Part shown: piece by piece, positions 6,341 through 32,094 of the stretch
Position numbering within the stretch: position 1 is the first letter of the stretch
Layout: each line of letters opens with the position of its first letter
DNA from: a virus
Lineage: Duplodnaviria; Caudoviricetes
Reading direction: 5' to 3' (one strand)
IMG/VR virus record: IMGVR_UViG_3300032007_000001
Length of the DNA stretch: 64,000 nt
The notes under the pieces: generated by a model
The model's input: the letters and a program-made list of their open reading frames with translations, nothing else
Databases searched by the model: none
Told to the model about the DNA's origin: nothing
Made by a program: the position numbers and the translations under genes

Positions 6341-6694
6341 ATGTTATATAAAATATACGAATACAAAAGCAGAACAAACAATTATAGAAATTATGTTTTC
6401 AAAACAATGATAGATGATTATTTTGTTGTCTTAAAATTTGTTATTCAAGATAATCATTTTATATTAGAATTTACAGTTGATAAAGAAGTTGATTGGGATA
6501 CGTTATGCGTTTGTTCCACAGATATTCAGTATTATAAATCATGGAAAAATGTTATCAAATTGAAAAAACAAAAAATAGATATAAATGACTTCAATGGTTC
6601 ACATAAAATTTTGATGTCTGAAAGAAGAATACAAACATGCGAAGATATCATTAATTTTGCTTTCAAAAAAATGTTTATATTTTTTGGTTTATAG
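6341..6694 (+). CDS. hypothetical protein, C-terminal GL-tail family
   Basis: ends ...IFFGL*. Confidence 0.7.
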   Translation: MLYKIYEYKSRTNNYRNYVFKTMIDDYFVVLKFVIQDNHFILEFTVDKEVDWDTLCVCSTDIQYYKSWKNVIKLKKQKIDINDFNGSHKILMSERRIQTCEDIINFAFKKMFIFFGL

Positions 6695-6703
6695 AAGGTA
6701 TTT

Positions 6704-6961
6704 ATGTTCATAAGAGATATCAACGAAAATTCATTTCCGTTTGAAATCAGTTATGACACGTATATGATGAATGGTTGGTTCATTGTCTCTTATAGTAAGA
6801 AAAATGGTAAAATCATTAAATATCATTTTTTGAAAGAGAAATATTTAATTAACGATGAAAATAATGTAAATAATATTCTTAATTTAATTGCTGGTAAAGA
6901 CATGAAAAAGCATTGTCTAGAAAAATTTAATAAGGAAATTATAAAAAATTTTGGTTTGTAG
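6704..6961 (+). CDS. hypothetical protein, C-terminal GL-tail family
   Basis: ends ...KNFGL*. Confidence 0.7.
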   Translation: MFIRDINENSFPFEISYDTYMMNGWFIVSYSKKNGKIIKYHFLKEKYLINDENNVNNILNLIAGKDMKKHCLEKFNKEIIKNFGL

Positions 6962-6963
6962 TT

Positions 6964-7263
6964 ATGAAAACTAATGTTAAACGTAAAAAAATGTTATATA
7001 CAAAAACGTACAGAGAAATCTTTATTGAGAAATTTGGAGAAATTGAGGTATCTTATTGTTTATTTCCAAAATTTAGCATTTTTAAGGTGAAAAAAGGAAA
7101 ACTTGTAGCTACTACAAATATGGTAGAAGATGCTTTCATGGAAAAAGATATTCTTTTAGCAGAAGATTTTGATAGTGAATATTTAACGATAAGTCAATTA
7201 AGAAAAATGAAGAAATATATGAATGTATTTGTTGAACATTTGGCAATATTTTTTGGATTGTAA
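6964..7263 (+). CDS. hypothetical protein, C-terminal GL-tail family
   Basis: ends ...IFFGL*. Confidence 0.7.
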   Translation: MKTNVKRKKMLYTKTYREIFIEKFGEIEVSYCLFPKFSIFKVKKGKLVATTNMVEDAFMEKDILLAEDFDSEYLTISQLRKMKKYMNVFVEHLAIFFGL

Positions 7264-7277
7264 ATGGAGGATTAACG

Positions 7278-7697
7278 ATGAATGTTTTGAGGAAAACGTA
7301 TTTTTCTGGTGCAATAAAAGATTTGTCATTAATGAAATCAAAAATCTATTGTTCGTTACTTCCAAAAAATACAAAAAAATATTTCAATCATGATTTTAAG
7401 GCTGCATGCAAAGCTTATTCTAAAAATAATAAATACGTAAGTTCATTTACTGGAATTTATTCAAATGATAAAACTGATATTTTGCATGTAGTTATTGAAA
7501 GTAATGACAATACAGTTACTTCTTTTTATGTTATGTATGATATGAAAGAGATGAAAGAAAAACAAATTGACATTAATAAAATCATCAATAAAAGTGATGA
7601 TTTTTCTTTGACTATGATTAAGTTATACAACATTCATTTGTATAATATAAAACGCCTTGCGAAGAAAGAGAAAAAAGATGGATTTTACAAAAAGTAA
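7278..7697 (+). CDS. hypothetical protein
   Basis: 139-aa ORF with GGAGG RBS, inside the array but lacking the GL tail. Confidence 0.65.
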   Translation: MNVLRKTYFSGAIKDLSLMKSKIYCSLLPKNTKKYFNHDFKAACKAYSKNNKYVSSFTGIYSNDKTDILHVVIESNDNTVTSFYVMYDMKEMKEKQIDINKIINKSDDFSLTMIKLYNIHLYNIKRLAKKEKKDGFYKK

Positions 7698-8001
7698 AAA
7701 CGAATTTGTTTTTATTAAGCAAACAATTGATAGATATATTGTTGTGAAATTCAATTTAATGCGCAATAATGTTTATGTCAATTTATATGTTGATAAAGAT
7801 GAAAATATTTCTTTCGCATATGGACATTCACCGATTGCTCATTTTTTTAAGGTTTTGGAATATACAGAATGGCTTTCATATTTGGAAATTTCAACGTTTG
7901 CAAATAGGTCAAGAAAGAAGCAATCAAAATTCGTTATGGATTACTATAATGACATTTTGAACGAAGCGGTTAAAGAATTGTATATTTATTGGGGATTATG
8001 A
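7657..8001 (+). CDS. hypothetical protein, C-terminal GL-tail family
   Basis: ends ...IYWGL*; likely start ATG 7678. Confidence 0.7.
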   Translation: MRRKRKKMDFTKSKNEFVFIKQTIDRYIVVKFNLMRNNVYVNLYVDKDENISFAYGHSPIAHFFKVLEYTEWLSYLEISTFANRSRKKQSKFVMDYYNDILNEAVKELYIYWGL

Positions 8002-8025
8002 AATGCAAAAAATTATCAGTATATT

Positions 8026-8367
8026 TTGGGCTGTGATAAAATGCTTGTAAATGATAATTTCATAAAAATAGATTTTGAGATAATTTATGGTTTGGGGTCA
8101 ATGCCGTGTTTGGTCTTGCTTGCAAAAATAGAGTATGATAATCAATTTTTTAATTTGATTGTAAATCATACATCTGATGGATGTTATGTAACGTTTAATT
8201 CCAATAAATGCATGCATCATTTTACAATCAACGAATCTGCTCATCTTATGACAATAACAGATAATGACATCAATACGTTAAGAAGAAAAAATATGCCAGC
8301 TGCACAATCGTTGTTTTTATATAATTATGTATTTGAATGTTGTCTAATGAAATGTTTGGGGTTATGA
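8026..8367 (+). CDS. hypothetical protein, C-terminal GL-tail family
   Basis: ends ...KCLGL*. Confidence 0.7.
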   Translation: MGCDKMLVNDNFIKIDFEIIYGLGSMPCLVLLAKIEYDNQFFNLIVNHTSDGCYVTFNSNKCMHHFTINESAHLMTITDNDINTLRRKNMPAAQSLFLYNYVFECCLMKCLGL

Positions 8368-8672
8368 ATATGAAAAAAATAAAAGCAATTAATGGAATGT
8401 TGTTTAAGTATATTAAAAAAATAAATGGAGAAAGATTCGAAGTTTTAATGCACGTATATAATACATTTATTGATGTTAAATTGGCAAAAATAACTTACAA
8501 TCTAAGACCATATACTGTGTTTGTATCAAAACCTGGCATAAAAGCAATCAATAGGAAAAATAAATTTGATGATATTTTTTCTTGCGCACATGCTGATAGG
8601 CGTTATGAAAAAGAATTTAGATTGCTATATGAATGTTTTTTGGACCATTTTGAATTAACGTTTGGATTGTAA
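8337..8672 (+). CDS. hypothetical protein, GL-tail family (paralogue of 8673..8993)
   Basis: ends ...LYECFLDHFELTFGL*. Confidence 0.7.
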   Translation: MLSNEMFGVMNMKKIKAINGMLFKYIKKINGERFEVLMHVYNTFIDVKLAKITYNLRPYTVFVSKPGIKAINRKNKFDDIFSCAHADRRYEKEFRLLYECFLDHFELTFGL

Positions 8673-8993
8673 TTGGAGTTAAAAATGAAAAAAAGATTTT
8701 TTAACGGTAATATTATTTTTTATTTTATGAAAGAAATCAATGGGCAAACATTTTTAGCTACTCTTCGTGTCAATCCAATAAATAACTTCAATAGTGATTT
8801 AAGTTTAGCAATCATATATGACAATAAAAAAGATACGCATTACATGTCAAAATTATGTACAAATGAAATCAATAGAAAAAAGAAATTTAATGATTTTTTA
8901 TCGTGTGTTTATACGAATGAATTTTACGAAAATGAATTTAAGATATTGTATGAATATTTTTTGGACGATTTTGAATTGACGTTTGGATTATAA
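8673..8993 (+). CDS. hypothetical protein, GL-tail family (paralogue of 8337..8672)
   Basis: ends ...LYEYFLDDFELTFGL*. Confidence 0.7.
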   Translation: MELKMKKRFFNGNIIFYFMKEINGQTFLATLRVNPINNFNSDLSLAIIYDNKKDTHYMSKLCTNEINRKKKFNDFLSCVYTNEFYENEFKILYEYFLDDFELTFGL

Positions 8994-8999
8994 AAACTA

Positions 9000-9028: not shown

Positions 9029-9041
9029 TATTGCAGAAAGG

Positions 9042-9759: not shown

Positions 9760-9777
9760 TGAAAGGAGATAATTGTT

Positions 9778-10959
9778 ATGCCGAGATATGCTATGCAAAG
9801 TGACAAGTCGATTTTGGAGGAAGCAATTCATAAATATGAGCAAGGTGTTTATGAAATTGTCGACCTTAAACAAATTGACAAAGATAGAAAAATAGATTTT
9901 GGTTGTTCCAATCTGAGCGACCCAGAAAATTGCGATTTTGGAGAAGGATTGGTTGATTACTATCAAATGAATGGCTTTTGCATAGCTCTTTGTTGTGCTG
10001 GTAGCGACGAAGAAACACCGTTGTATTTTGCTCTTTATCTTGATGATAAAAATAAGTTCCGCATGTATATTCCAACCGTTGGAAACACTTTCAATAAATT
10101 TGATAAAAACGCTTTTTGCAGTGAAGATTTTGGTTGGGCAGAACGTTACAACAATTGGGGACTTACAAACGATGATAAAATTTATGATGCAGCGGTAAAA
10201 TTTGTTGACCATATTTTTGAGACATCAAATTTGGACGCTATGTTGGCAGATATTGCTAATCGTATAACTTTGAAAGGCAATGAGACCATTCCAATTCCAG
10301 AAGAAATGATTAGAAAAGATAATGAACGTTGGAATTGGAATCCATTGCAAAAAGCCGACAGTGATTGCGAAGATGAAAACAATTTTGAAGATATTGAGGA
10401 TGGAGACGACGTAATCAAAGCATATCCGGAATTGTTTGAAGAAGTAGAAAAGAATGACGACGATGTGTATATTGAATGTGATTATTGTGATAATGAAGAT
10501 TTTGAAAAATACAAAAATTCGACTGGAAAATTGTTAAAAGATGAATTGAATAAAAAATATAAATTTAGGCTTTGCGTTGAAATGGAAGGACATTATCGCG
10601 GGAATTTCTATTCTAATAATGCAAATAAGTTGCGTACAATTGCAAAGGATTTTATAGATTTGTATTGGGATGTCAATTACGACCCTTATTATGAGGAAGA
10701 TTATGATGGCAGTTATCCATTCATTTATTGTCCTCTTGATGGTCATTTTGAACTGCCAATGGTTCTCAATTATTTGATGATGGCTTGTGGTGATGGATGT
10801 GAGTGGTTCATTAATTGCTATACAACAGAGAATGAAGACGCAGATTCTGATGAAATGTATAAGCTTGGTCTTTATCCTAAAAAAGTACACGAAATGTTTT
10901 TGGACCACAATGACCATATTGCTTGTATGGGGAAATATGAATACTTGAGGAAAAAATGA
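9778..10959 (+). CDS. acidic two-domain hypothetical protein
   Basis: 393-aa ORF with AAAGGAG RBS; C-terminal domain duplicated in 9042..9530. Confidence 0.75.
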   Translation: MPRYAMQSDKSILEEAIHKYEQGVYEIVDLKQIDKDRKIDFGCSNLSDPENCDFGEGLVDYYQMNGFCIALCCAGSDEETPLYFALYLDDKNKFRMYIPTVGNTFNKFDKNAFCSEDFGWAERYNNWGLTNDDKIYDAAVKFVDHIFETSNLDAMLADIANRITLKGNETIPIPEEMIRKDNERWNWNPLQKADSDCEDENNFEDIEDGDDVIKAYPELFEEVEKNDDDVYIECDYCDNEDFEKYKNSTGKLLKDELNKKYKFRLCVEMEGHYRGNFYSNNANKLRTIAKDFIDLYWDVNYDPYYEEDYDGSYPFIYCPLDGHFELPMVLNYLMMACGDGCEWFINCYTTENEDADSDEMYKLGLYPKKVHEMFLDHNDHIACMGKYEYLRKK

Positions 10960-11270
10960 TTATAAAAAATTTTTCTTTTCGCAAAAAAATCAAAGTATAT
11001 TTTGATATTGCGAAAGATACAAAGATAATTTTATATGATTTTTTTGGAAACAACGTATTGTTGCTAAAAATTGAGTGTCAATATGATTATATTTTTTCAT
11101 TTGCATTAAATGAGTATGGAACAAAAACATTCAACGCAAAACTTTTTGAAACAGATTTTTTACATACATTCGGAGATGATGAACGAAATAGAGAAGCATC
11201 AGAAACACTTTCAAATATAGTTAAAAATTATTATCCAATAAAAAAATTAATTCCCAATATTGGATTATAA
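10956..11270 (+). CDS. hypothetical protein, GL-tail family
   Basis: ends ...PNIGL*. Confidence 0.7.
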   Translation: MIIKNFSFRKKIKVYFDIAKDTKIILYDFFGNNVLLLKIECQYDYIFSFALNEYGTKTFNAKLFETDFLHTFGDDERNREASETLSNIVKNYYPIKKLIPNIGL

Positions 11271-11378: not shown

Positions 11379-11981
11379 ATGAAATTAGTATATGTAAATG
11401 ATGAACAATATAATGATTTTATAAATTCCTTAACAATAGAACAAAAATCTATGCTTAGAAATAACGAAGACAATAATGATGATTCTGATGATAGCTTGGC
11501 TATCATCAGAATCTTATCTAATAGTGAATATGACCAATATATTATTAATAGTACATGCGATGGGTCCATATCATTAAATAATCAAAATGTATGGCACCAT
11601 GACGAACCTCGCCAGGATGTTTCTATAAACACTGGACACTCCAATTATTCTCTTGGTGAGTTTGGGTCTTGTGTGTTGCTAAAAGAATTGGTACAAAACA
11701 ATATTAAAGAAAATGCATGTCTTTATAGTCAATCTAAAATAAAAGTTGATATGTTTGTGACATGGTACAGCGAAAAATATAGAACATCGCATTCTATCGA
11801 AAAGAGTATGTATGAAAACAAAACTACAAAAAATAAAAAATATTTTGTTTATCCAAATGGTGTAATAAATTATAATTCTCAAGGTTCTGCTCATGGTTGG
11901 TATGCTTTTAATATATCTTTTAATTATCGTCCTGTTTTTCAATATATAGATAATAATAAATCTAACAATATTTTTAGGTGA
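11379..11981 (+). CDS. variable-core paralogue family member 1
   Basis: IRILSNSEYDQYII..TCDGSI...NVWH and C-terminal YRPVFQYIDNNKSNNIFR. Confidence 0.75.
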   Translation: MKLVYVNDEQYNDFINSLTIEQKSMLRNNEDNNDDSDDSLAIIRILSNSEYDQYIINSTCDGSISLNNQNVWHHDEPRQDVSINTGHSNYSLGEFGSCVLLKELVQNNIKENACLYSQSKIKVDMFVTWYSEKYRTSHSIEKSMYENKTTKNKKYFVYPNGVINYNSQGSAHGWYAFNISFNYRPVFQYIDNNKSNNIFR

Positions 11982-11985: not shown

Positions 11986-12675
11986 ATGTCAAAAATTATT
12001 TCTGACGAATTATATAATCAAATCTTAAATTCTAATTTAGAACAATCATTAAAAAATTCATTAATAAATCTGCAAAACAATAACAATGATATTTCTAATA
12101 ATAGTTTAATTGGTATTAGGACATTGTCTCCTGATGAATATGATAAATATATTATAAATGGAAATGCAGACTATTCTATAACAGTTCATGATAATAATGT
12201 ATATCACTATCAAGATGATTATGGAACTGGTAAATCATATATTGGTTACAGTGGTTCATATTGGGATGCAAATAATGCTACTGTAAAAAGCATGTATCAT
12301 TATCCTAATTATGTTTTGAAATATACAAATGACCAAGGTTATGTATATGATACATTTAATTGTTATCTTTCATATGAACTTGGACAAGGCAGTTCTGAAA
12401 ATAATTGTTCTATTTATAGAGGTGAACAATGTATTATCGACTGTCTTGGAGGACAAAGCGGATATTATGGTTATGTAGTTACTAGTACAAATGATATTGT
12501 AGCAATAATAGATAAAGATGTAACGCAAAAACTTGTTGATGCTAAAATAAGTTGGTTTAGAAATGCAAGGGGCGGAAGGTCTGATAGAGCATGGTTAAAT
12601 ATTTATTATAATTTTAATTTTCGTCCTATTTTTATTTTTGCAGACAATAATAAGTCTAAGAACATTTTTTATTAA
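11986..12675 (+). CDS. variable-core paralogue family member 2
   Basis: IRTLSPDEYDKYII...SIT...NVYH and FRPIFIFADNNKSKNIFY. Confidence 0.75.
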   Translation: MSKIISDELYNQILNSNLEQSLKNSLINLQNNNNDISNNSLIGIRTLSPDEYDKYIINGNADYSITVHDNNVYHYQDDYGTGKSYIGYSGSYWDANNATVKSMYHYPNYVLKYTNDQGYVYDTFNCYLSYELGQGSSENNCSIYRGEQCIIDCLGGQSGYYGYVVTSTNDIVAIIDKDVTQKLVDAKISWFRNARGGRSDRAWLNIYYNFNFRPIFIFADNNKSKNIFY

Positions 12676-13386: not shown

Positions 13387-13476
13387 TATCACTAAAACAC
13401 ATGAGAGGCCCATCAGGCCTCTTTTTATTTATGTGTTATAAAATATATATTTACATATATTCGAATTTGTTATAGA

Positions 13477-13791
13477 ATGTATCTGGTGATAATTATGATA
13501 TTTGCTAATGACTTACAAATAAAAATCGATTGTATTTTTAATTATAAACCAGTACAATACATTCACATATCTATAATTTTTATATACAAAAATAAACGTA
13601 CGAGAACAAGATATAGTGCAAATGCATATAACATATTTGATTGTAAATTAACTGATTTTAAGAATGTATTCAAAAACGAACAATACATTATAAATTTTAA
13701 AAAAGATGTTATAGAACAAGAAAATAGAATCAATAAAGAAATAATCAATTATTTTAAGAACAGTAATCACATGTTGTACATAGGACTGTAA
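13477..13791 (+). CDS. hypothetical protein, GL-tail family
   Basis: ends ...LYIGL*. Confidence 0.7.
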   Translation: MYLVIIMIFANDLQIKIDCIFNYKPVQYIHISIIFIYKNKRTRTRYSANAYNIFDCKLTDFKNVFKNEQYIINFKKDVIEQENRINKEIINYFKNSNHMLYIGL

Positions 13792-13794
13792 ATC

Positions 13795-14139
13795 ATGAAA
13801 ACATTGGAAAAGTATTGGTTTGAAAATAAAAACGTTTTTGTATCGCGATATTCTCATAATAATTTAATTTTTTCTTTTGGTCTTCATAAAAAAGAAAAAC
13901 GAGGAATTAGCATTCATTCTTCTATTAAAATGAAAATAAATAACGAATATCTTTTGATATGCGATTTACATACATTTAATGTTTTGGATGCAAATATTGA
14001 TGATTTTACAACATCGTTAACTAATAATTGTTATATTGGATTTTTTGATAGAAATGAAAATTTTTGCCAAAATCATTTTAGTGAAGCATTAAAAAGATTT
14101 TTTATAGATGTTAATCAAATTGCTATGGTGGGATTATAA
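13795..14139 (+). CDS. hypothetical protein, GL-tail family
   Basis: ends ...AMVGL*. Confidence 0.7.
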   Translation: MKTLEKYWFENKNVFVSRYSHNNLIFSFGLHKKEKRGISIHSSIKMKINNEYLLICDLHTFNVLDANIDDFTTSLTNNCYIGFFDRNENFCQNHFSEALKRFFIDVNQIAMVGL

Positions 14140-14392
14140 GATGTTTTATTCAAGAAAAGTACATGACTTGCATTTTTCTTTTCATATGCAAGAAGATTAT
14201 AGAGATTACTATACTTTATATGTAACATCCGAACCAGACTTAAATTTTGAAGTTACATTTGATTTTTTGACAATTCCAAAAATAGATGAAGAAGAAAAAA
14301 ATTATTTATGTAAGTACTATGGAGAACATTTTGAAATATGGGTACATGAATTTTTTAGAGATAAAATTTTCCTAACCAAATTTGGATTATAA
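14108..14392 (+). CDS. hypothetical protein, GL-tail family
   Basis: ends ...TKFGL*; likely start ATG 14141. Confidence 0.7.
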   Translation: MLIKLLWWDYKMFYSRKVHDLHFSFHMQEDYRDYYTLYVTSEPDLNFEVTFDFLTIPKIDEEEKNYLCKYYGEHFEIWVHEFFRDKIFLTKFGL

Positions 14393-14420
14393 AAAAGAGA
14401 GGCAAATGCCTCTCTTTTTT
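14393..14420. terminator. bidirectional intrinsic terminator
   Basis: AAAAGAGAGGC-aaat-GCCTCTCTTTT between convergent genes. Confidence 0.8.
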
Positions 14421-14729: not shown

Positions 14730-16277
14730 TTAGCAAATGCATGGCATTTTTACATGTTGATTATTAATATGGTCTTTTTGTCCGCATACTGGACATTCGT
14801 TGTCAATGATTCCATTATATCCGCAATTACTGCATCTATCAATTGGATGATTGATAGCACAATATGTGCAATCATAATCATGCATTGTTCTTACAATTTT
14901 TTCAAATGCAGATAAATTCTTAGTTGGGTCTCCATCCATTTCTACATACATAATGGCGCCAGCATTACATAATGCATGATATGGAGCTTCAATTCTAATT
15001 TTATCAATTGCTTTAATTGGATAATATACTGGAACATGGCTTGAATTTGTCATATATTCTTTATCTGTTACACCTTTTATGATTCCATAATGAGCCTGGT
15101 TGCTTCTTTGGAAACTACCAGCTGTAGATTCTGCAGGTGTAGCAAAAACAGACCAATTCAAATGTGTATCTTTAATATACTTATCAGTCATTTCTCTCAT
15201 ATGACCAATAATTTCCAATCCAAGTTTTTGAGATTCTTCTGATTCACCATGATGTTTTCCAGTTAAGAATTTTAAGCATTCTGCTAATCCACAAAAACCA
15301 ATACTTAATGAAGCATGTTTCAATATTTTTTCTATTGTGTCATTTGGTTTAAGCTTTTCACTATCCATCCAAACTCCTTGACCAAGCAAGAATGGATAAT
15401 TATAAACATGGCGTTTACCGATTAAATGATATCTCCAAAGAATTTGATTCTTTGCTAACTCCATATATTTATCAAGAAGTTTATAAAATTCCTTTATATT
15501 TTTTTGAGATTCAATAGCTAATTTTGGAAGATTAATAGTAGTGAATGAGAAATTACCGCGACTTGTAACAATTTCTGGACCGTTTACATTGCTAATCGTG
15601 CGCGTTCTGCAACCCATTGTCGCGATTTCAGTACGTGGGTCATCCGGTTTATAATATTGTAAGTTATATGGAGCATCTACATTTACAAAATTTGGGAATA
15701 AACGTTTTGCTGAAACTCTGATAGCTAATTTGAATAAATCATAATTTGGGTCTCCGGGATTATAATTTATTCCTTCTTTCATTTTGAAAACAGTAATTGG
15801 AAATATTGGAGTTTCACCTTTTCCCAATCCTTCTTCTTGCGAAAGTAAAAGTTTTTCTGTTACAAGTCTACCTTCTGGCGATGTGTCTGTTCCAAAATTC
15901 AAAGAACTAAATGGCGTTTGTGAACCGCAACGGCTATGCATAGAATTCAAATTGAAAATAACGCTTTCCATAGCTTGATACGTTTCATCTTCAATTTGTT
16001 CGCATGTATTTTCGTATACTTTATTCAAAAAATCATAAATTATTTCTTCAATTACATTGAATTTATCACTTAACTTTTTTGATAATTCTTTTAAACATTC
16101 ATTGTTAAGATATGTTGGATAATTATTTTCAGCTATTTCTAAAACTTTATCATTATCATAGTTTGTGTATTTTAAAGCAGCTTTTAAGTTTTTCTTAAAG
16201 TCTTTTTTAAATGATTTTCTAACGCCTTCCGCCATGCCATAATCAAAACAAGCAATGCTTTGGCCTCCAAATTGGTC
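14730..16277 (-). CDS. nrdD: anaerobic ribonucleoside-triphosphate reductase, exon 3
   Basis: DQFGGQS, SQTPFSS, TMGCRTR, RGNFSFTTINLP, ATPAES, YMTNSSHVP, C-terminal CxxC...CPVCG. Confidence 0.93.
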   Translation of the reverse strand, partial: DQFGGQSIACFDYGMAEGVRKSFKKDFKKNLKAALKYTNYDNDKVLEIAENNYPTYLNNECLKELSKKLSDKFNVIEEIIYDFLNKVYENTCEQIEDETYQAMESVIFNLNSMHSRCGSQTPFSSLNFGTDTSPEGRLVTEKLLLSQEEGLGKGETPIFPITVFKMKEGINYNPGDPNYDLFKLAIRVSAKRLFPNFVNVDAPYNLQYYKPDDPRTEIATMGCRTRTISNVNGPEIVTSRGNFSFTTINLPKLAIESQKNIKEFYKLLDKYMELAKNQILWRYHLIGKRHVYNYPFLLGQGVWMDSEKLKPNDTIEKILKHASLSIGFCGLAECLKFLTGKHHGESEESQKLGLEIIGHMREMTDKYIKDTHLNWSVFATPAESTAGSFQRSNQAHYGIIKGVTDKEYMTNSSHVPVYYPIKAIDKIRIEAPYHALCNAGAIMYVEMDGDPTKNLSAFEKIVRTMHDYDCTYCAINHPIDRCSNCGYNGIIDNECPVCGQKDHINNQHVKMPCIC

Positions 16278-16623
16278 CGTGTTATTCAATCGATATCGCT
16301 ACTATCGACCAGTTCTCTTATGAACTTCATGTGCTTTCACACATAGACTAGACTATATCATTCTCGCCATATATCTTAAAAAAGATACTTAGGTTTTGTC
16401 CCCCACTTCTCAGGCGCTTGCCCAATAAAAGCATTTCAGCTTATAGTCGTTGAGGTTTATTCTGTTCGAATCTTACCTGCTGATTTCCCAATCCTTAAAC
16501 TTTTTAAAGCATTTGCGTTTGAGCTTATTTCATCTCTCCGATTTAGCATTAAGGCTCTAAGGGCGTTCCAGCATTTCAAGGGAATGCGAGTAATATGTTT
16601 CCATATTAAACGAACAAATTTTT
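16278..16623 (-). ncRNA. group I intron 2 of nrdD (ORF-less, 346 nt)
   Basis: Minus-strand core elements AAAUGCUGGAA (P), AAUCAGCAG (Q), UCAACGACUA (R), UGAUAUAGUCU (S); terminal G before the GAC codon. Confidence 0.85.
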
Positions 16624-16639
16624 ATTTTGGTTGCTTTGT
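16624..16639 (-). CDS. nrdD: nrdD micro-exon 2 (16 nt; completes Ile and encodes QSNQN)
   Basis: A CAA AGC AAC CAA AAT restores the conserved ACIAI-QSNQN-DQFGGQS in frame. Confidence 0.85.
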
Positions 16640-17598: not shown

Positions 17599-18263
17599 AT
17601 GGCAATACACGCGAGCGCTGCATAAGAACGAATTGATTGTGGTTCTCTTATCCAACCGTTGCCAGTAGAAAATCCTCCATGAAATAATTTAAGAATATCT
17701 ATTTGGCAGCAATTGAAAGTTAACATCGAAAAGTCCTTATCGTGTATATGAAGCCAACCTTCTTTCATTGCTTCCACATATTCATCTGGCATAACGTAGT
17801 TATCAATGAAAAATTTACTTGCTTCAGTACCATACTTAAGCATTGACCCCATTGTGCTTGTAGAAGAAATGTTTGCATTGTCTCTATATGCATCAATTGA
17901 ATTATCAGCTTTGAATGTAAGATTCATGAATTCTGACATTAATTTCTCTGCATCATCTCTTCTTTTAGCATGTTCAGCTCTATACACAATATATGATTTT
18001 GCTGTATTGATGTACTTTGACTTCATTAAAATGTTTTCTGTAGCTTCACTAATCTTATCTACAGATGGAATTTTGGTATCAGAAAAATAGTCTTCAACTT
18101 GCTTTACAATGTCCGTGATTTGTGCAATGTTCATTCGTTTGTCTTTACTATCCTTATTTGCTTGACGAATGGCATTGAAAATCTTAGAATCATCATATTC
18201 TACTATTTTTCCATTTCTCTTTTTTACCTTAAACACTTTGAAAAATTCATCTCCTTTTTGCAT
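17599..18263 (-). CDS. nrdD: anaerobic ribonucleoside-triphosphate reductase, exon 1 (ATP cone)
   Basis: VKKRNG..VEYDDSKI ATP cone, DNAN, HIHDKDF, EPQSIRSYAALACIAI. Confidence 0.92.
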
Positions 18264-22297: not shown

Positions 22298-22852
22298 TCA
22301 AAAACCAAATTTTTTCAATATCTCAAAGGATTTTAAGCTTGACATCATATTTTCATATCCAACATTTGAAAGAAAATCATGACAATCTATTTGCGTTTTG
22401 GGATTCGAATTAATTCGTTTTTTAATATAATCATATTTGTCGAAAAATTCTTTTTTAGATGGAATTGTCATACAATCATACGTATATCCAGAACAACCAA
22501 GGTATTTATCGTTTATATCTGAAAATAAGTAATCAATTCCCAGCCCAGAAAATACTGTTTTCATATTAAAATTAAAAAACTTATGCTTAAATACCATCGT
22601 TTTAGCCGAATGACAAATTTGTAAATCTAAAATAAGTGTTTTATTGTTCGAACCAATAATTGTATATTGATAAATATGATAAAAAAATCCAAAATTTTTT
22701 TGAGCACATTCATAACAAACTGTAATTGTTTTTGATTGATATTTATGATAACGTAATGCTATTTCGACACTATTCCCCTGCGTATTGCCACAAAAATGAC
22801 ATGGTGCATGTATTATATTATCATTGTATTTTTCATCAAAAATATCAATCAT
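22298..22852 (-). CDS. Zn-finger hypothetical protein, G[LF]-tail family
   Basis: CHFC...CYEC; ends ...KKFGF*. Confidence 0.7.
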   Translation of the reverse strand: MIDIFDEKYNDNIIHAPCHFCGNTQGNSVEIALRYHKYQSKTITVCYECAQKNFGFFYHIYQYTIIGSNNKTLILDLQICHSAKTMVFKHKFFNFNMKTVFSGLGIDYLFSDINDKYLGCSGYTYDCMTIPSKKEFFDKYDYIKKRINSNPKTQIDCHDFLSNVGYENMMSSLKSFEILKKFGF

Positions 22853-22860
22853 AAATTACC

Positions 22861-23511
22861 TCAAAGACCAAATATTTTTTTATCTACTCCAATCTCAAGA
22901 GTTTTTGTCATGCAATCATAAATATACTTAATCAATTTTTCATTTCTTACAACTTTTTGCTTTGATTCTAATTTGGCTCTATCTGCATGTTTTATCATCC
23001 TATAATAAAATTCATCATATGAAGGAAGACAATATGGCGTAAATTCATCATTAATAGAAATTTCATTTTCACTTCCAAATGTATTTTTATGTCTTCCAAT
23101 GTTTTTCAAACTTTTCAATTTTATATAGCATTTCATTTCGAAAATCATATTTACTAAAGATTTTCGAAAATATGTAGAATAACGTTTTGTTTTATGTTGT
23201 TCAAATCTTACTTTAATGCTTTCAATATCTTCTATTCCAAGTTTTTCTCCATCAGAACGATGATTGTGAACAAATATGCAATTTCTCGTATTGTAGCAAT
23301 TATCGCATACGTGTTTACCATCATGCAACACTTTTATATTTTTATATTCAACTATACGTTGTCCAAGCGGTACAAATCCCAAACTTCCGTCAATTATAAA
23401 AGCATGGATAATTTCTCCGCAAACAGCACAACGCTCTTTTATAGATTCTGCTTTCTTAATTTTATTTTTTATTTTCATTATTTCAAATTCTTTAATTGCT
23501 TTTTTAGCCAC
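22861..23511 (-). CDS. Zn-finger paralogue, GL-tail family
   Basis: CAVC...CDNC, HNHRSDGEK, KCYI.L.SL..GR..FG..NEI; ends KIFGL*. Confidence 0.75.
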   Translation of the reverse strand: MAKKAIKEFEIMKIKNKIKKAESIKERCAVCGEIIHAFIIDGSLGFVPLGQRIVEYKNIKVLHDGKHVCDNCYNTRNCIFVHNHRSDGEKLGIEDIESIKVRFEQHKTKRYSTYFRKSLVNMIFEMKCYIKLKSLKNIGRHKNTFGSENEISINDEFTPYCLPSYDEFYYRMIKHADRAKLESKQKVVRNEKLIKYIYDCMTKTLEIGVDKKIFGL

Positions 23512-23529
23512 ATCAATCCCTCAGAAAAA

Positions 23530-24228
23530 TCATAATCCAAATATTGTTTTATCAAGACCAACTTTTAATGTTTTAATAAAACAATTATACATATATTTAA
23601 TTAATTTTTCATTTTGCAATATTGTTTGTTTTTCTTTTATCCTTGCACGCAAAGCGTGATATAATATTCTTTTTTGAAATCTTTCGTATGATGGAGCACC
23701 AAAAGGCATAAATTCATCATTTATTGTAATTTCATTGTCTTTCCCAAAACCATTATTTCTCCCAGAATTTTTTAGACTATATAAGGTTATATAACATTTC
23801 ATTTTAAGTTTGGTATTATATATATATTGTTTTGTTTTTAAATTAAAAATTTTATCTCTAATGTGTTCAAATCTGACTTTTATAGTTTCTAAATCATCAA
23901 TATTTAATTTTTCGCCATTAGACCTATGATTATGAATAAAATAACAATTTAATTTATTAAAACAATTAATACATATTTCTTTTCCATTATTTAATGTTAT
24001 ACTTTCATCATATATAGAAGTTGGTTCGTTAAGTACATTTGTTGTATTATTATTTGATATAATTTTTTTCATTGTAAGAATTTTTATATTATATTTGGCT
24101 GAGATGATTTCTCCACAAATATGACATCTTTTTTTTATTTCAATAAGATTTTTCTTTCTTTTAATGGCAAAAGGTCTTTTATTCATTATTTCAAATTCTT
24201 TAATTGCTCTTTTAGCCACATTTATCAC
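23530..24228 (-). CDS. Zn-finger paralogue, GL-tail family
   Basis: CHIC...CINC, HNHRSNGEK; ends TIFGL*. Confidence 0.75.
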   Translation of the reverse strand: MINVAKRAIKEFEIMNKRPFAIKRKKNLIEIKKRCHICGEIISAKYNIKILTMKKIISNNNTTNVLNEPTSIYDESITLNNGKEICINCFNKLNCYFIHNHRSNGEKLNIDDLETIKVRFEHIRDKIFNLKTKQYIYNTKLKMKCYITLYSLKNSGRNNGFGKDNEITINDEFMPFGAPSYERFQKRILYHALRARIKEKQTILQNEKLIKYMYNCFIKTLKVGLDKTIFGL

Positions 24229-24237
24229 CCGTTTCTA

Positions 24238-24266
24238 ATTATAACAAAATTTTTAATAAATGTAAA
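24238..24266 (-). promoter_or_regulatory. sigma70-type promoter
   Basis: TTTACA, 17 bp, TG-T-TATAAT on the minus strand. Confidence 0.65.
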
Positions 24267-24309
24267 TAATTAAGTACATAAAAAATGCCGATTAATACCG
24301 GCATAAATT

Positions 24310-24930
24310 TTATAACCCATTCATCAATGTTATATATTGTTTGTCTATTCCAACATTCATGCTATGTTTTATGCATTCATATAAATATTTAATAAATCTA
24401 TCATTAGCTAGCAAAGCTTTTTTACTTGGTATCTTAGCTCTTTTACTATATATTAGTATATCATTCTTAAAATCATTAAATTTTGGAATATCCATCATAT
24501 CATTTCTAAAACTTTTTTCAAAAATAATTTCTTTTTCATTATCAAATGAAGTTGTACGATGAGAATCCTCAAGACTTTTTAAGTCTATATAACACGTAAA
24601 TCCAAATGAATGTATACGTTTATATATGACTATCTTTATTCTTTCAGCATCATTTATTTTTTCTTTTTTACCATTTGTTCTATATTCATGATAAAATGTT
24701 CCAAAAATTTTATTGTAGCATGTACAGCATAGTTCTTTTCCTTCGAAATCATATATACAACCAATTATTTGGTTTTCAGACTTAAAATAAAAAGGTTTTC
24801 CACATTTCGAGCAATAATGTATTACTCCGTTTTTGTCATTTTTGTGTTTTTCTATTTGTGGAATTATCAACATTTCGTTACATTGAAATGCATTTTTTAC
24901 GTTCATATGTTTCTCCTTATAATCCATCAA
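24310..24930 (-). CDS. Zn-finger paralogue, GL-tail family
   Basis: CSKC...CCTC; ends LMNGL*. Confidence 0.75.
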   Translation of the reverse strand: MMDYKEKHMNVKNAFQCNEMLIIPQIEKHKNDKNGVIHYCSKCGKPFYFKSENQIIGCIYDFEGKELCCTCYNKIFGTFYHEYRTNGKKEKINDAERIKIVIYKRIHSFGFTCYIDLKSLEDSHRTTSFDNEKEIIFEKSFRNDMMDIPKFNDFKNDILIYSKRAKIPSKKALLANDRFIKYLYECIKHSMNVGIDKQYITLMNGL

Positions 24931-25513
24931 TTAGTGTTAACATTTTTTTATCAACACCAATGTTAAAACTATATGTTATGCATTCATATAGATAATTTAT
25001 AAATTTTTTATCAATTAATAATTCTTTTTTGTCTTTTATTTTTGCTCTTTTACTTAATGTTGTCATTATGTTTGTAAATTCTTCGAATGTTGGTACTTTA
25101 TAGTAATCAAAGTTACATTCAAAAGAAATTTCATTTTCTTTTCCAAAAAATGTACTTCTACCTGAAGCTTTTAAGCTGGTCAAATCTGCATAACACTTGA
25201 GATGAAATTTTTTAAAAAATCTAGAAAGTTCGACTTTTAATCTTTCAACGTTGTTTATATTTTCTTTTTCTCCGCGAGTTTTATATGTATGAGAAAAAAA
25301 ACTATGTCTTTTTTTATAGCAATCTTCACATATTTTTTTTCCGCAATCCATTTCCATATAATGTGTACTAAATCTTGGAGAACGTATTTCCATTGGGTTT
25401 CCACAAATAGGACAATACGTTATTTTTGCATCAATATAGTATTTTTTGTCAAAATCCATTATATAATTTGTACGCATTTCTAAATTGTCTTTTACCATTA
25501 AAAATGCCTCCAA
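24917..25513 (-). CDS. Zn-finger paralogue, GL-tail family
   Basis: CPIC...CEDC; ends LIDGL*. Confidence 0.75.
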   Translation of the reverse strand: MEAFLMVKDNLEMRTNYIMDFDKKYYIDAKITYCPICGNPMEIRSPRFSTHYMEMDCGKKICEDCYKKRHSFFSHTYKTRGEKENINNVERLKVELSRFFKKFHLKCYADLTSLKASGRSTFFGKENEISFECNFDYYKVPTFEEFTNIMTTLSKRAKIKDKKELLIDKKFINYLYECITYSFNIGVDKKMLTLIDGL

Positions 25514-25534: not shown

Positions 25535-25563
25535 ATTATACCATAGAATTAAAAAAAAGTAAA
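25535..25563 (-). promoter_or_regulatory. sigma70-type promoter
   Basis: TTTACT, 17 bp, TG-G-TATAAT on the minus strand. Confidence 0.7.
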
Positions 25564-28817: not shown

Positions 28818-28829
28818 ATTTCCTCCAAA

Positions 28830-29552: not shown

Positions 29553-29661
29553 CTCTTTATTTCCAAATATATTTTATCAAATTACATTGAAAAAGAAAAT
29601 TGATTTCTAAAATTTTTTATACATTAAAAAAGCCGGATTATTTATATCCGGCTTTAATTTT

Positions 29662-29973
29662 TTATTTTTTTGCAAATTCAAATTTTGTATCAAAAACTGT
29701 TAAGCATTTTCCAGCAAGAATTTTATCCGGCTCGTTTGTCCATGTTCCGAGAAGCAAATCTTCTTTGATGTCTTTCATCAAAACTTTTCGATTCATTACT
29801 CCAGCATCAACTCCTCGTGCCCATGGTTCTGGGACAGCAACATATTTGTACGTTTCATCATGTTTCGTTACCACCTTGCACAATCCAAGGTAAACGTATT
29901 TATCACTTTCATGCCAATAGATTCTACCAAATTGCAAACGATGTTTTTCTTTACTTGAAATTTTCATATTCAT
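29662..29973 (-). CDS. hypothetical protein
   Basis: 103-aa ORF coupled to the upstream gene; terminator at ~29627-29655. Confidence 0.65.
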   Translation of the reverse strand: MNMKISSKEKHRLQFGRIYWHESDKYVYLGLCKVVTKHDETYKYVAVPEPWARGVDAGVMNRKVLMKDIKEDLLLGTWTNEPDKILAGKCLTVFDTKFEFAKK

Positions 29974-30836
29974 GCTCCTTTTTTAAGAACAATCTTACCT
30001 TTGTCTTGAGCCCAATCTTTCAAATCTTGCAATGTAACCCAACCAAAATTATATTTGTCTTGCTCTTGCGGGTTGAGCCAGAAAATAAGATTTCCTTTAT
30101 CGTCTTTCTTTGGAGAAAGTGCAAAAAATTTTTTTCCGGCATTTTTCAGTTCTTCGTAAATGCCAGTTTCGTATGCTTCTTTCCACGTTTCATAATTTTC
30201 CTTATCGTTCTCGTATACCTTGTCAGCCCAAGACTTAGGAATCAAAGACTTGATAAGGATAGTAAGACCAGCATTCTTAAATACTCCGCCACCAGTAAAT
30301 CCAATTGTGATATCGAGATTTTGAAACGCATTATACAACGTTTCAACTACATTTTTATCTTTTGCCATGAAGGCAAAATCTTCACCGCTCCAACATGCAG
30401 AAAAATCCCAATCATCTTCCCAAGGAATGAGTTCAGAATGCGGTTTCTCATTGCAATTGCGGTCATAATATCCACCTGCACACACGAGAGCATATGCTTT
30501 TTCGCCTTTGATTTTATATTCGTAAATCTTTACGTTAGAACCATCGCGAATAGAACGTGCTTCAATACCAAACAACGGTTTAAGAGTACCATTGTAAGAT
30601 TCAAAATTATCTCGTTCAGATGCTGAAACATAGTTTCCTTTATTGTCAATATAATTTCCAATACCGCATCTACGAGAAATTCCCTTAATGCCCCACTCAT
30701 GTTCAGCACAGTAATCTGCACCAAGGTCTACACCAACAATAATGTTAGCTTTCTTTCTTTTGTACCCAAAATCTTTTCCGTAAATCACCTTTCCATGAAA
30801 TGCTCTACGCATTATTTCAGCCCCTTTCGTTAACAC
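29970..30836 (-). CDS. hypothetical protein
   Basis: 288-aa ORF (likely start ATG 30812) behind a TTTACA/TATAGT promoter. Confidence 0.75.
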   Translation of the reverse strand: MLTKGAEIMRRAFHGKVIYGKDFGYKRKKANIIVGVDLGADYCAEHEWGIKGISRRCGIGNYIDNKGNYVSASERDNFESYNGTLKPLFGIEARSIRDGSNVKIYEYKIKGEKAYALVCAGGYYDRNCNEKPHSELIPWEDDWDFSACWSGEDFAFMAKDKNVVETLYNAFQNLDITIGFTGGGVFKNAGLTILIKSLIPKSWADKVYENDKENYETWKEAYETGIYEELKNAGKKFFALSPKKDDKGNLIFWLNPQEQDKYNFGWVTLQDLKDWAQDKGKIVLKKGA

Positions 30837-30870
30837 TATATCATATTTTTAAGTTTTTGTAAACAACTTT

Positions 30871-31182
30871 TTATACTTTTCCAATATATGGATTTTCAAA
30901 GCTAAGAGGATTTACGCCAAGAGCAAACAGGTATTGGCGATATTGCCATGTATCTTCCGGACGTACATCCCAATCAACGAGATATTCATCTTCTGTCAAT
31001 GTAATATTATCTTCAATTTCTTCTTTTTCATCTCCCCATACTGTAGTAATAACAGCACACACTTCATTATCTTTTTCATTGCGTTCAATATCTTCAATCT
31101 TCTTTGGTGCAACGCATTCGTTAAGCAAAGCTTTGATTTCTTTGTCTGTGAGTTCAACTATCCTACGATAATTTTTTTTCAT
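30871..31182 (-). CDS. hypothetical protein
   Basis: GGGAG RBS and upstream sigma70-like promoter (31214-31241). Confidence 0.7.
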   Translation of the reverse strand: MKKNYRRIVELTDKEIKALLNECVAPKKIEDIERNEKDNEVCAVITTVWGDEKEEIEDNITLTEDEYLVDWDVRPEDTWQYRQYLFALGVNPLSFENPYIGKV

Positions 31183-31246
31183 GGCATTTATTCTCCCTTC
31201 TTTTGATGTTTATATTATACCATAATTTAGTAAAAAGTAAATAGCT

Positions 31247-31663
31247 TTGTGCAAAAATATATGTACAAATTTAATGAATTATGATAAAATTACATTAAAG
31301 GAGAGAAAATTAATGTTTAAGAATATAAGATTAATCAAACAAGAAATTAAATATTCAACATGGGGAATAAGAGAATATCTTATGATGTTTCGTTTTTCAT
31401 GTAAAAATGAAAATAATGAAAAAGATATGGTGCATATTATCATATCAAGTAATATCGATTTTAATTTTTATCATTGTGTTATATCTGCAAAAGAGATTCA
31501 TAAAATATTCAATTTTCATAGTATGTTTGGTAAAAAATTAAGCACATATGATTTTGCTAGAGAATATGGATTGTATTATTCTGAATTTTATAATAAGGTT
31601 TTTGATAAATCATTAAAACATTTTTATAAACAAGTAAGACTTTTGGAACGGGTGGGATTATGA
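31247..31663 (+). CDS. hypothetical protein, GL-tail family
   Basis: ends ...ERVGL*; likely start ATG 31313 after AAGGAG. Confidence 0.7.
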   Translation: MCKNICTNLMNYDKITLKERKLMFKNIRLIKQEIKYSTWGIREYLMMFRFSCKNENNEKDMVHIIISSNIDFNFYHCVISAKEIHKIFNFHSMFGKKLSTYDFAREYGLYYSEFYNKVFDKSLKHFYKQVRLLERVGL

Positions 31664-32094
31664 TGTCTGTACAAACAGAACTTATGGATTTTTTTAATTT
31701 GTTCTATCAAATAAAAACATGGACAATGATGTTGAATGATGATAGATGCAAATATATGATGGAAATAATGTCAAAAATGGAAACAATAAAAGACATAATG
31801 ATTATATGTTTTGACATTTATAATACATATCAATTGAAAAATGGAAATTATGTAAGAGGCGAAAGAATTTTTACAATTGAAGTTAATGTAACAGAAGATA
31901 TATTTACTGCATATGAATATTCATTTTGCAAACATAAAGGACATCTTAGAGATTTTAGAGATGTGCTTTTAACAGAACATTCGTTAAGAGATGTGTTTGA
32001 TATAATAATGACATTTGAAAAAAACATTTTGCCAAAAATCAAAAATTTCGAACAAGAAACGTATGAAATGCATTTAATCAAATATGGATATTAA
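31660..32094 (+). CDS. hypothetical protein, tail variant GY
   Basis: ends ...IKYGY*; coupled to the previous gene. Confidence 0.65.
   Translation: MMSVQTELMDFFNLFYQIKTWTMMLNDDRCKYMMEIMSKMETIKDIMIICFDIYNTYQLKNGNYVRGERIFTIEVNVTEDIFTAYEYSFCKHKGHLRDFRDVLLTEHSLRDVFDIIMTFEKNILPKIKNFEQETYEMHLIKYGY

Follow-up and report, generated by a model that had tools for sequence, protein, structure and literature searches.

About 110 genes of a 504,279 bp megaphage from the bovine (cattle) gut, about 15% of its genes (~1 in 6), encode proteins ending in a common tail, in which a hydrophobic residue is followed by Gly and, most often, Leu. The tail is a feature of the protein and is strictly terminal, and strong purifying selection maintains it even as the bodies that carry it turn over. 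This GL-tail protein family is previously undescribed, and is best explained, at about even confidence, as a clade-specific and hyper-variable repertoire of small proteins bearing a C-terminal tag that would be read by one partner.

Tail genes in the window and in the whole genome

Eighteen tail ORFs had been predicted in the window, the 64-kb stretch of DNA that was analysed (64,000 nucleotides), and all were present at their coordinates (Table 1). Sixteen end in GL, and those starting at 22298 and 31660 end in FGF and YGY, respectively. The five ORFs at 22298-25513 lie on the minus strand, and no further tail ORFs were found within the whole window. Promoters had also been proposed to precede the arrays, and TTTACA-17-TAtAAT sites with a TG are indeed found there (6281, 9000 and 13450), but promoters of this type occur genome-wide and are not specific to the arrays.

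Table 1. Tail ORFs, transcription signals and clpX in the window.
Feature	Position	Strand	Length (aa)	C-terminal end	Remarks
Sigma-A-like promoter	6281..6309	+			TTTACA-17-TAAAAT with TG; precedes 6341-8993 array; terminator 6227-6254 just before
Tail protein	6341..6694	+	117	FFGL	First gene behind promoter 6281
Tail protein	6704..6961	+	85	NFGL	
Tail protein	6964..7263	+	99	FFGL	Linked by BLAST to 7657 and to two genes at 21.4-22.1 kb of the genome
Tail protein	7657..8001	+	at most 114	YWGL	Start uncertain
Tail protein	8026..8367	+	113	CLGL	
Tail protein	8337..8672	+	111	TFGL	Paralogue of 8673
Tail protein	8673..8993	+	106	TFGL	Paralogue of 8337
Tail protein	10956..11270	+	104	NIGL	In 9-copy 'FYPL..YI..IGL' subfamily
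Sigma-A-like promoter	13450..13478	+			Precedes 13477-14392 array; terminator 13403-13423 before promoter
Tail protein	13477..13791	+	104	YIGL	First gene behind promoter 13450
Tail protein	13795..14139	+	114	MVGL	
Tail protein	14108..14392	+	94	KFGL	Last gene of operon, followed by terminator 14391-14420
Intrinsic-terminator-like hairpin	14391..14420	+			Closes 13477-14392 array
Tail protein, Zn-ribbon subfamily	22298..22852	-	184	KFGF	
Tail protein, Zn-ribbon subfamily	22861..23511	-	216	IFGL	
Tail protein, Zn-ribbon subfamily	23530..24228	-	232	IFGL	TTTACA-17-TATAAT promoter directly upstream (~24238-24266)
Tail protein, Zn-ribbon subfamily	24310..24930	-	206	MNGL	
Tail protein, Zn-ribbon subfamily	24917..25513	-	198	IDGL	Promoter ~25535-25563
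Tail protein	31247..31663	+	138	RVGL	
Tail protein	31660..32094	+	144	KYGY	
Phage ClpX	54358..55551	-	397		Candidate tail reader, by inference

Counting C-terminal dipeptides over the whole genome confirmed the tail and showed it to be far more widespread than first noted. In a set of greedily chosen, non-overlapping ORFs of at least 60 aa (n = 680, 91% coding), GL is the ending of 81 genes, where composition predicts 2.5, while 13 end in GY and 12 in GF. Endings of the form G-[LFYMI] are found in about 109 of the 680 genes, and reach one third (96/288) among those of 75-150 aa. They are also strongly clustered, with 77 of 109 adjoining another tail gene on the same strand (32 +/- 6 when labels are shuffled). 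Bacillus phage G (497,513 bp, 29.9% GC), a negative control matched on size and GC and analysed with the same ORF caller, does not have GL among its 15 commonest endings (2.9 expected). A 416-kb relative (G001) has 29 GL ends, against 1.9 expected.

No recognisable enzyme was found to carry the tail, which occurs only on orphan small proteins and on one orphan of 521 aa, the GL end of which is kept in both this phage and the 416-kb relative. The restriction to orphans is explained equally well by inheritance within one superfamily. A dUTPase ending in YGY was rejected as a true tail carrier, since the same end is present in phage G, which is without the tail system.

The tail as a terminal protein motif

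The original prediction held that selection acts on the protein terminus and not on the DNA, and this is borne out by the varying codons, the lack of conservation past the stop and the confinement of the motif to the exact C-terminus. The Gly codon of the tail may be GGA (69), GGG (19), GGT (15) or GGC (6), all six Leu codons are used, the genes stop at TGA (51), TAA (50) or TAG (8), and no nucleotide conservation was found 3' of these stops. At the exact C-terminus there are 78 instances of the tripeptide hydrophobic-G-[LFYMI], compared with 0-2 at each offset from 1 to 12 (background 2.1). Among about 100 fast-evolving copies, none extends beyond the tail by a single residue.

The signature is longer than the terminal residues, comprising about 13 basic and hydrophobic residues that reach back to position -13, with hydrophobic residues at -6 and -1. 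A position-specific scoring matrix (PSSM) of positions -13 to -4 alone separates tail from non-tail small proteins with an AUC of 0.84 when paralogues are left out, and the matrix trained on this phage gives an AUC of 0.81 when applied to the 416-kb relative. Positions -3 to -1 match [LIVFY]-G-[LF] in most copies, and the last residue in relatives may be A, Q, M, I, V or S.

Divergence and predicted fold of the bodies

While core genes of this phage and the 416-kb relative share a median identity of 59%, BLAST finds a counterpart in the relative for just 1 of 98 small tail genes, compared with 59 of 190 other small genes. The relative nevertheless has its own GL-ended set, so that the tail has been kept while the bodies have changed beyond recognition, as expected of a shared docking or degron tag. 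Within the Zn-ribbon subfamily, homologues from other contigs (23-30% identity) retain just three invariant columns, one of which is the penultimate Gly; this residue outlasts nearly every residue of the core, and the linker before it varies in length.

AlphaFold2 (AF2) models of two subfamilies predict a common four-strand meander followed by helices. In the 10956 protein, four strands lead to helices and a low-confidence tail; the 24917 protein (pLDDT 84.7) is modelled with a Zn ribbon, four strands, four helices and a tail at about 61. In both models the last residues form a short helix capped by Gly-Leu, and within the ordered part pLDDT is lowest at the tail (55 and 61, compared with 85-96), which fits an exposed motif. 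The two subfamilies have 15 of their top 50 PDB neighbours in common. The weak neighbours, at Z 4-5, include peptide-binding modules, polo-box and WNK CCT-like domains; the fold matches, with Z of 5.8 at most, do not rise above noise. An hhalign comparison of the two subfamilies found no relationship, even at the tail.

The bodies had been described as unrelated, and this is true of sequence only, because the two modelled subfamilies belong to one fold class. Given the common predicted fold and the common PDB neighbours, a single hyper-divergent superfamily is no less likely than the grafting of a tail onto unrelated domains, and the tail need not be a portable module.

Alternative explanations

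Rather than being read by a partner, the tail could be purely structural: one ancestral domain whose last helix ends in a Gly-hydrophobe C-cap (Schellman-type) packed on its own core, and which was simply inherited. Hydrophobic residues at the positions equivalent to -6 and -1 are typical of a Schellman cap, the short terminal helix of the AF2 models ends at G-L and could be an entirely intramolecular cap, and the common topology and PDB neighbours, together with the restriction of the tail to orphan small proteins in tandem arrays, would fit this origin. However, such a cap would tolerate a few extra residues, and none of the copies has even one; it also does not sit easily with the low pLDDT of the tail, with a penultimate Gly that outlives the core behind a linker of variable length, with the negative hhalign result, tail included, or with the tail of the 521-aa protein. 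We regard this as unlikely.

An improbable alternative is self-association, in which the tail would add to a sheet or groove of another copy or family member, head-to-tail or by strand swap, giving homo- or hetero-oligomers. Beta-formers (I, Y, F, V, W) abound in the last 6-7 residues, which show no special amphipathic-helix character, fold and tail are conserved together, and peptide-binding modules are among the fold neighbours. Those matches are, however, no better than noise, and oligomerization explains neither why the carboxyl end is strictly free across more than 100 paralogues nor why their sequences are hyper-variable.

It is also quite improbable that the tail binds some other hub for C-terminal peptides, such as the host sliding clamp, a host PDZ-type domain or the membrane. 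E. coli Pol IV ends in QLVLGL-COOH, and the last six tail residues resemble the hexapeptide clamp motif minus its Gln; hydrophobic-x-hydrophobic-COOH matches class II PDZ ligands, and the tail is hydrophobic with a net charge of about +1. Against this, position -6 is I, L or K and not Gln, no clamp (PF00712, PF02768) or PDZ_2 domain was found in the phage, and the last 11 residues do not have a raised hydrophobic moment, unlike membrane helices of the MinD or FtsA type.

The original prediction favoured host ClpP, with the tail mimicking the IGF/IGL loop of Clp ATPases and occupying the hydrophobic pockets of ClpP, which would make it an adaptor, activator or blocker. This version found no support, and we consider it highly improbable. 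The tail does fit the loop pattern [LIV]-G-[FL], and the phage depends on host ClpP, because its own ClpX has an IGF loop but no ClpP gene was found in the phage. The loops, however, are internal and are presented six-fold on an AAA+ ring, whereas the tail is one free C-terminus on a small (100-aa), monomeric, non-ATPase protein, and its last residue varies in relatives. With over 100 proteins competing for the pockets, the phage's own ClpX would be shut out as well.

A signal in translation (termination efficiency, re-initiation or the coupling of small genes) rather than a feature of the finished protein is hardly credible: TGA stops are over-represented (47% in tail genes, 31% genome-wide), 34 tail genes run into the gene that follows, and GGA and GGG are favoured Gly codons, but the tail is equally frequent with (57) and without (52) a close downstream gene, with the same codon preferences, nothing is conserved past the stop, Phe, Tyr and Met are in use besides the six Leu codons, and the signature extends 13 residues back and transfers between phages.

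Comparison with known systems

The closest parallels to a tagged small-protein repertoire are the lineage-specific expansions of jumbo phages, such as the ~35-copy Zn-ribbon family of Bacillus phage G (Iyer et al. 2021, PMC7824862). In both cases, dozens to more than 100 tandem, fast-diverging small orphans are limited to one clade and clustered towards the genome ends, and the presumed role is host takeover or counter-defence. They differ in that BLAST, HMM and hhalign fail to recognise most copies here as paralogues, and in that the uniting feature is a strictly C-terminal motif of ~13 residues, which is absent from phage G. These expansions also resemble the multigene families found in large eukaryotic DNA viruses.

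Proteins of the Atg8/GABARAP type (about 100-120 aa) also end in F/Y-G-X, an aromatic residue and Gly plus one residue, which is removed by Atg4. The tail-protein models, however, have no beta-grasp fold, no E1-like ThiF gene was found in the phage, and a conjugated tag is implausible with more than 100 different proteins.

The SspB adaptor is tethered to the ClpX N-domain by a short C-terminal peptide, the XB tail. If ClpX reads the GL tail, this would likewise couple a variable substrate-binding body to ClpX, but E. coli has one such adaptor against more than 100 proteins here, and the two motifs have no sequence likeness.

Degrons of the ssrA type, which are read by ClpX, also consist of a few residues at the extreme C-terminus and need a free carboxylate (Fei et al. 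2020, PMC7652416). The GL tail, a putative degron, differs in being hydrophobic-Gly-Leu and not Ala-Ala, and in being encoded by the gene itself, whereas ssrA tags are appended by tmRNA. The tmRNA of this phage still specifies an ...AIAA tag.

Phage ClpX as a candidate reader

The most likely reader of the tail would be the phage's own ClpX acting with host ClpP, a tentative candidate that we hold at low confidence. This ClpX keeps the Zn finger, the GYVG pore-1 loop and the IGF loop, but its pore-2 loop is shortened by 3 residues and its RKH loop is replaced. In E. coli ClpX, Thr199, Arg228 and His230 read the Ala-Ala-COO- of ssrA (PMC7652416), and the phage protein is without equivalents of these residues. 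The ClpX proteins of G000, G001 and G002 all retain IGF and GYVG, have a 3-residue pore-2 deletion at the site of Thr199, and lack RKH, while the ClpX of phage G, where the tails are absent, is canonical. Since three related phages are set against phage G, the link between tail and ClpX comes down to a single phylogenetic event and could thus be coincidence. Many megaphages have ClpX genes, and G002, a 177-kb fragment (36% of a genome), combines the altered ClpX with an array of just four genes, which end in IGI, IGV, TGV and TGS.

We infer that the tail is a short linear motif whose free C-terminus would be recognised by a single shared partner, and that the variable bodies would engage diverse targets, probably those of the host. 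The ~110 genes form a clade-specific, tandemly expanded and extremely fast-evolving set of small basic proteins made from host-type promoters, the modelled members being predicted to fold as a four-strand beta-meander followed by helices. All members end in the basic and hydrophobic module of ~13 residues that stops at hydrophobic-Gly-Leu-COOH, or with Phe, Tyr, Met or Ile for Leu. Were the partner phage ClpX together with host ClpP, the tail might act as a C-degron that times removal of the proteins, or as an adaptor tether.

Gly-Leu ends across the 504 kb genome

The window covers bases 97,438-161,437 of a virus record consisting of one contig (504,279 bp, 29.7% GC), and bovine-gut metagenome runs contain near-identical sequence. 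Several genes of this phage resemble those of large Firmicute phages, and for 109 genes BLAST finds a counterpart in Bacillus phage G. The 18 small ORFs that the original prediction described as sharing a Gly-Leu tail (16 ending GL, one FGF and one YGY) were all found, with ends as described. The whole genome was laid out as 680 non-overlapping ORFs of at least 60 aa, and the comparison of C-terminal dipeptides with amino-acid-frequency expectation that the prediction had called for came out strongly on its side: Gly-Leu ends 81 of the 680 ORFs against 2.5 expected, followed by GY (13) and GF (12). Phage G (497,513 bp, 29.9% GC), treated with the identical ORF caller, has no GL enrichment, and the signal is therefore not created by base composition or method.

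About 109 proteins shorter than 270 aa (median 108 aa) end in G-[L/F/Y/M/I], and the tail is present on 96 of the 288 genes of 75–150 aa. Tail genes form tandem arrays at 0–60, 100–132, 380–400, 440–460 and 480–504 kb of the genome, and 77 of the 109 have a tail-bearing neighbor on the same strand (32 ± 6 with shuffled labels). The promoters expected in front of the arrays were located: TTTACA-17-(TG)TATAAT sites lie 5' of them, and terminators at their ends. Promoters of this type occur about 110 times genome-wide, and 19 of 52 gene-proximal sites head runs with tail genes. The pattern fits transcription by the host RNA polymerase, as far as promoter sequence can indicate, and gives no date for the genes. 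One metatranscriptome library holds a few contig pieces that are 100% identical to the phage, which are not a sign of transcription, and the parts left uncovered are without meaning.

A strictly terminal protein motif

Several observations point to the tail being a feature of the protein rather than the DNA. All four Gly, six Leu and three stop codons are in use, and directly 3' of the stop codon the information content drops to background, in agreement with the proposed selection on the protein terminus. A close downstream gene makes no difference to how common the tail is (57 with, 52 without). At the exact C-terminus the motif hydrophobic-G-[LFYMI] occurs 78 times, compared with 0–2 times (the background rate) at each of offsets 1–12; confinement to the exact end in so variable a family implies selection against any extension.

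The shared signature is longer than first described, reaching back about 13 residues. Gly occupies position -2 and is followed at -1 by L in 80 copies, F in 12 and Y in 12; 72% of copies have a hydrophobic residue at -3 (F 20, Y 20, I 19, V 6). Upstream of these are basic residues at -5/-4, hydrophobic residues at -7/-6, a Lys-rich stretch from -10 to -8 and an aromatic residue at -12/-11, with F/Y/I preferred at -3. With paralogues excluded, a position matrix restricted to residues -13 to -4 tells small tail proteins apart from other small proteins at an AUC of 0.84, and farther upstream of -13 the AUC falls to 0.54–0.61.

Sequence and fold of the bodies

The bodies preceding the tail had been called mostly unrelated, a description that stands by sequence, while the two models suggest otherwise by structure. 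BLAST leaves 85 of 117 as singletons, iterated HMMs with the tails stripped still leave 92 groups with no more than 9 members in any, and body-to-body alignment z-scores equal those against non-tail proteins. The two best-populated subfamilies, 'FYPL' (window 10956) and Zn-ribbon (22298-25513), show no profile relation when their alignments (A3 and A5) are compared by hhalign (probability 0.1%). The AF2 model of the 'FYPL' subfamily (pLDDT 74) has four antiparallel strands, then helices and a low-confidence tail, and in that of the Zn-ribbon subfamily (pLDDT 84.7) the Zn ribbon leads into four strands, then three helices, with a short helix at the very end. Against 48,161 PDB chains, 15 of the top 50 neighbors of each model are common to both (all Z ≤ 5.8), including the C-domains of CO-dehydrogenase flavoprotein and LplA, the polo-box and WNK CCT-like domains. 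Neither model matches anything above noise in the PDB (Foldseek, VIA wide), BFVD or the Atlas (best Z 5.0 and 5.8); a YueH-like fold was among the best matches (TM 0.58/0.68), also not above noise. By their models, the two subfamilies appear to belong to one fold class, to which no known fold can be assigned (Z ≤ 5.8). It is plausible that all tail proteins form a single hyper-divergent superfamily, of which two subfamilies have been modeled and some 90 sequence groups lie beyond them.

Database searches gave little else. Pfam and PHROGs returned nothing meaningful for the 18 window proteins or for 10 proteins of relatives, megablast and tblastn against a phage collection gave no match for the arrays or P0022, and look-ups in the ESM Atlas yielded low-confidence models with no usable neighbors. 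When the 'FYPL' subfamily was searched by word index against 5.8 billion proteins, nothing came up beyond the phage's own sequences and near-identical fragments from metagenomes.

Relatives and turnover

The tandem arrays are confined to one clade: the tail occurs in a 416 kb IMG/VR relative (G001) and in related ENA contigs, and is absent in phage G. In G001, whose core genes have a median identity of 59% to those of the 504 kb phage, GL ends number 29 against 1.9 expected. About 210 proteins are common to both phages. BLAST matches just 1 of 98 small tail genes to G001, compared with 59 of 190 small genes that lack the tail, yet the tail matrix derived from the 504 kb phage recognizes the tail proteins of G001 with an AUC of 0.81. 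Bodies have thus been replaced or have diverged beyond recognition while the tail was kept, which bears out the general idea of variable bodies on one conserved, selected C-terminal tag. Exhaustive searching with a profile of the Zn-ribbon subfamily retrieved homologues at 23–30% identity in other contigs, all ending in h-G-L or h-G-I (h, hydrophobic). The alignment of 13 sequences has three invariant columns only, one of them the penultimate Gly, and the linker preceding it varies in length. Two of these homologues come from ENA contigs (119 and 166 kb), where they sit amid arrays of 80–120 aa proteins with ends of the form [YF]-G-[L/M/A/Q/I].

The only large protein truly having the tail in common is a 521 aa orphan encoded just upstream of the window; its 520 aa orthologue in G001 (53% identity) ends in KIGL. 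A zincin-like identity for this orphan, indicated by weak structural matches, was rejected as there is no HExxH. Other large proteins ending in GV or GY have orthologues without that end and were counted as chance, and the YGY end of the dUTPase is a coincidence since phage G has the same end.

Window positions 8342-8672 and 13409-14370 are matched at 90–93% identity by contigs of related strains, from sheep and cattle gut runs, and in one of them the match breaks off right at the stop codon that ends the 8337-8672 gene. This boundary hints at a shuffling of whole tail-gene cassettes between strains.

The best reading of these data is a clade-specific, hyper-diversifying repertoire of small proteins that carry a C-terminal linear motif read by a partner. 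Its main rival is that the tail is an intramolecular helix cap, inherited within one superfamily; arguments against such a cap are that extensions are strictly excluded, that the tail has low confidence in the models and that the linker before it varies.

Phage ClpX and other candidate readers

For a motif read by a partner, the leading candidate reader is a re-tooled ClpX encoded by the phage itself (397 aa), a proposal drawn from comparison of ClpX sequences. The protein retains the zinc finger, the GYVG pore-1 loop and the IGF loop, and so should work with host ClpP. When compared with ClpX of E. coli and phage G, the ClpX proteins of the phage, of G001 (71% identity) and of a 177 kb relative fragment, G002 (63%), share a 3-residue deletion in pore-2 at the Thr199 site and have RKH replaced by a different, shorter loop; ClpX of phage G is canonical, with neither change. 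In the ssrA degron, the terminal Ala-Ala-COO- is read by Thr199, Arg228 and His230; human ClpX has other residues at these positions and leaves ssrA substrates undegraded (PMC7652416). The loop changes affect the ssrA-reading residues, and the specificity of the three viral ClpX proteins is therefore probably altered. ClpX genes as such also occur in Lak phages, Atu_ph07 and phage G (PMC7824862).

The tail matches ssrA-like C-degrons in its extreme C-terminal position with a free carboxylate (78 at offset 0). It differs in ending Gly-Leu instead of Ala-Ala, and the phage ClpX differs in its missing RKH and in a pore-2 shortened by 3 residues; if the tail is a degron, it would be a non-canonical one. 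An altered ClpX beside more than 100 proteins with a non-canonical tag is suggestive of ClpX as the reader, but represents one phylogenetic event. A co-fold of the ClpX N-domain dimer with a tail protein (score 0.02, mark 0.32) speaks neither for nor against binding. Both the phage and G001 (tag ANEEYAIAA) encode a tmRNA, and both tags end in the canonical Ala-Ala though the phage ClpX is without the residues that read such ends.

The tail fits the PDZ class II ligand pattern (hydrophobic-x-hydrophobic-COOH); a search of the 504 kb genome for ClpP, PDZ_2 (PF13180), the DnaN N- and C-domains and ThiF/E1 found none. An Atg8- or ubiquitin-like modifier would have a beta-grasp fold and an activating E1 enzyme. 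No ubiquitin-like chain is present among the fold neighbors listed for the two models, and the genome has no ThiF-family match. The original prediction had put forward docking on ClpP, and positions -3 to -1 do conform to the [LIV]-G-[FL] tripeptide. Docking loops, however, are flexible, internal and borne on a hexameric AAA+ unfoldase, whereas the tail is found only at the free C-terminus of carriers of 85–230 aa, which have no ATPase domain; with no phage ClpP either, this mechanism finds no support. The tail does not match a beta-clamp-binding motif (QLxLxL or QLVLGL-COOH), which begins with Gln; Gln is not among the commonest residues at position -6 (I 30, L 20, K 19, V 8), and the phage has no DnaN-type domain as clamp partner. 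A membrane-helix role was dropped, as the last 11 residues show no raised hydrophobic moment.

Other features of the phage

A second expanded family, of about 200–270 aa (BLAST cluster 27), has at least 19 copies genome-wide. All end in F-x-Y-x-D-N-N-K-S-x-N-I-[FY]-x and, unlike the GL proteins, are recognizable by sequence. What separates the two apparent parts of the ribonucleotide reductase-like gene is probably an intron, judging from the ORF lying there. The tRNA-like gene adjoins a GC-rich non-coding island. The TnpB-type, MFS transporter, Thg1-like and DUF285 genes are odd cargo for a phage.

Features of the phage genome (window coordinates unless marked as genome)
Feature	Position	Strand	Remarks
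tmRNA	genome 6105-6468 (stretch L001:6105-6468), outside window	-	tag peptide DNDYVAIAA
521 aa orphan	genome 95233-96798 (stretch L005:15233-16798), just upstream of window		ends GLGL; own TTTACA promoter
tRNA-like gene, four-base anticodon loop (cgta)	933-1007 (genome 98370-98444)		ARAGORN
Second expanded family, copies	11379-11981, 11986-12675, 32142-32849, 46465-47214 (-), 61807-62517, 62519-63283		
Anaerobic ribonucleotide reductase-like gene, apparently split	14730-18263	-	C-terminal part 14730-16289; N-terminal ATP-cone part 17580-18263; judged from translations
Homing endonuclease-like ORF	16871-17491		between ribonucleotide reductase parts; judged from translation
269 aa ORF	19598-20407	+	putative flagellin-like N- and C-terminal sequence; judged by eye
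Thg1-like tRNA-His guanylyltransferase	34054-34944	-	Pfam
MFS transporter	48416-49579	-	Pfam
DUF285 repeat protein	53112-54287	-	Pfam
Phage ClpX	54358-55551	-	E 3e-100 to solved ClpX
TnpB/OrfB_IS605-type protein	60509-61714	-	Pfam

Significance of the tail proteins

Large expansions of this kind, made up of small early proteins and in some cases marked by C-terminal motifs, are already known from jumbo phages (PMC7824862); no description of this tail family or of its two-residue terminal rule was found in the libraries or literature searched. A specific and rather unlikely version of the partner-read motif is a proteome-wide tag, in which the re-tooled ClpX reads the tail on more than 100 hyper-variable proteins. 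ClpX with altered pore-2 and RKH loops would recognize hydrophobic-Gly-Leu-COOH on the tail proteins, and this could lead to scheduled clearance of the whole class. Alternatively, the tail proteins may be a library of diversifying adaptors that hand bound host proteins (e.g. those of defence) to ClpX and host ClpP for destruction.

Some 15% of the genes of a half-megabase phage bear one strictly terminal tag, on bodies that outpace nearly all else in the genome in their evolution. A tag that is kept on fast-changing bodies is what marks an arms-race repertoire connected to a single shared machine. Naming that machine would place more than 100 orphan genes in a function class at once, in this phage and in related rumen megaphages. 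Should the altered ClpX prove to be the reader, it would be a first case of a viral degron or adaptor code for a bacterial AAA+ protease, and also a natural source of orthogonal degradation tags. The more modest reading, a hyper-divergent superfamily known only by its last 13 residues, also helps in annotating the dark matter of huge phages.
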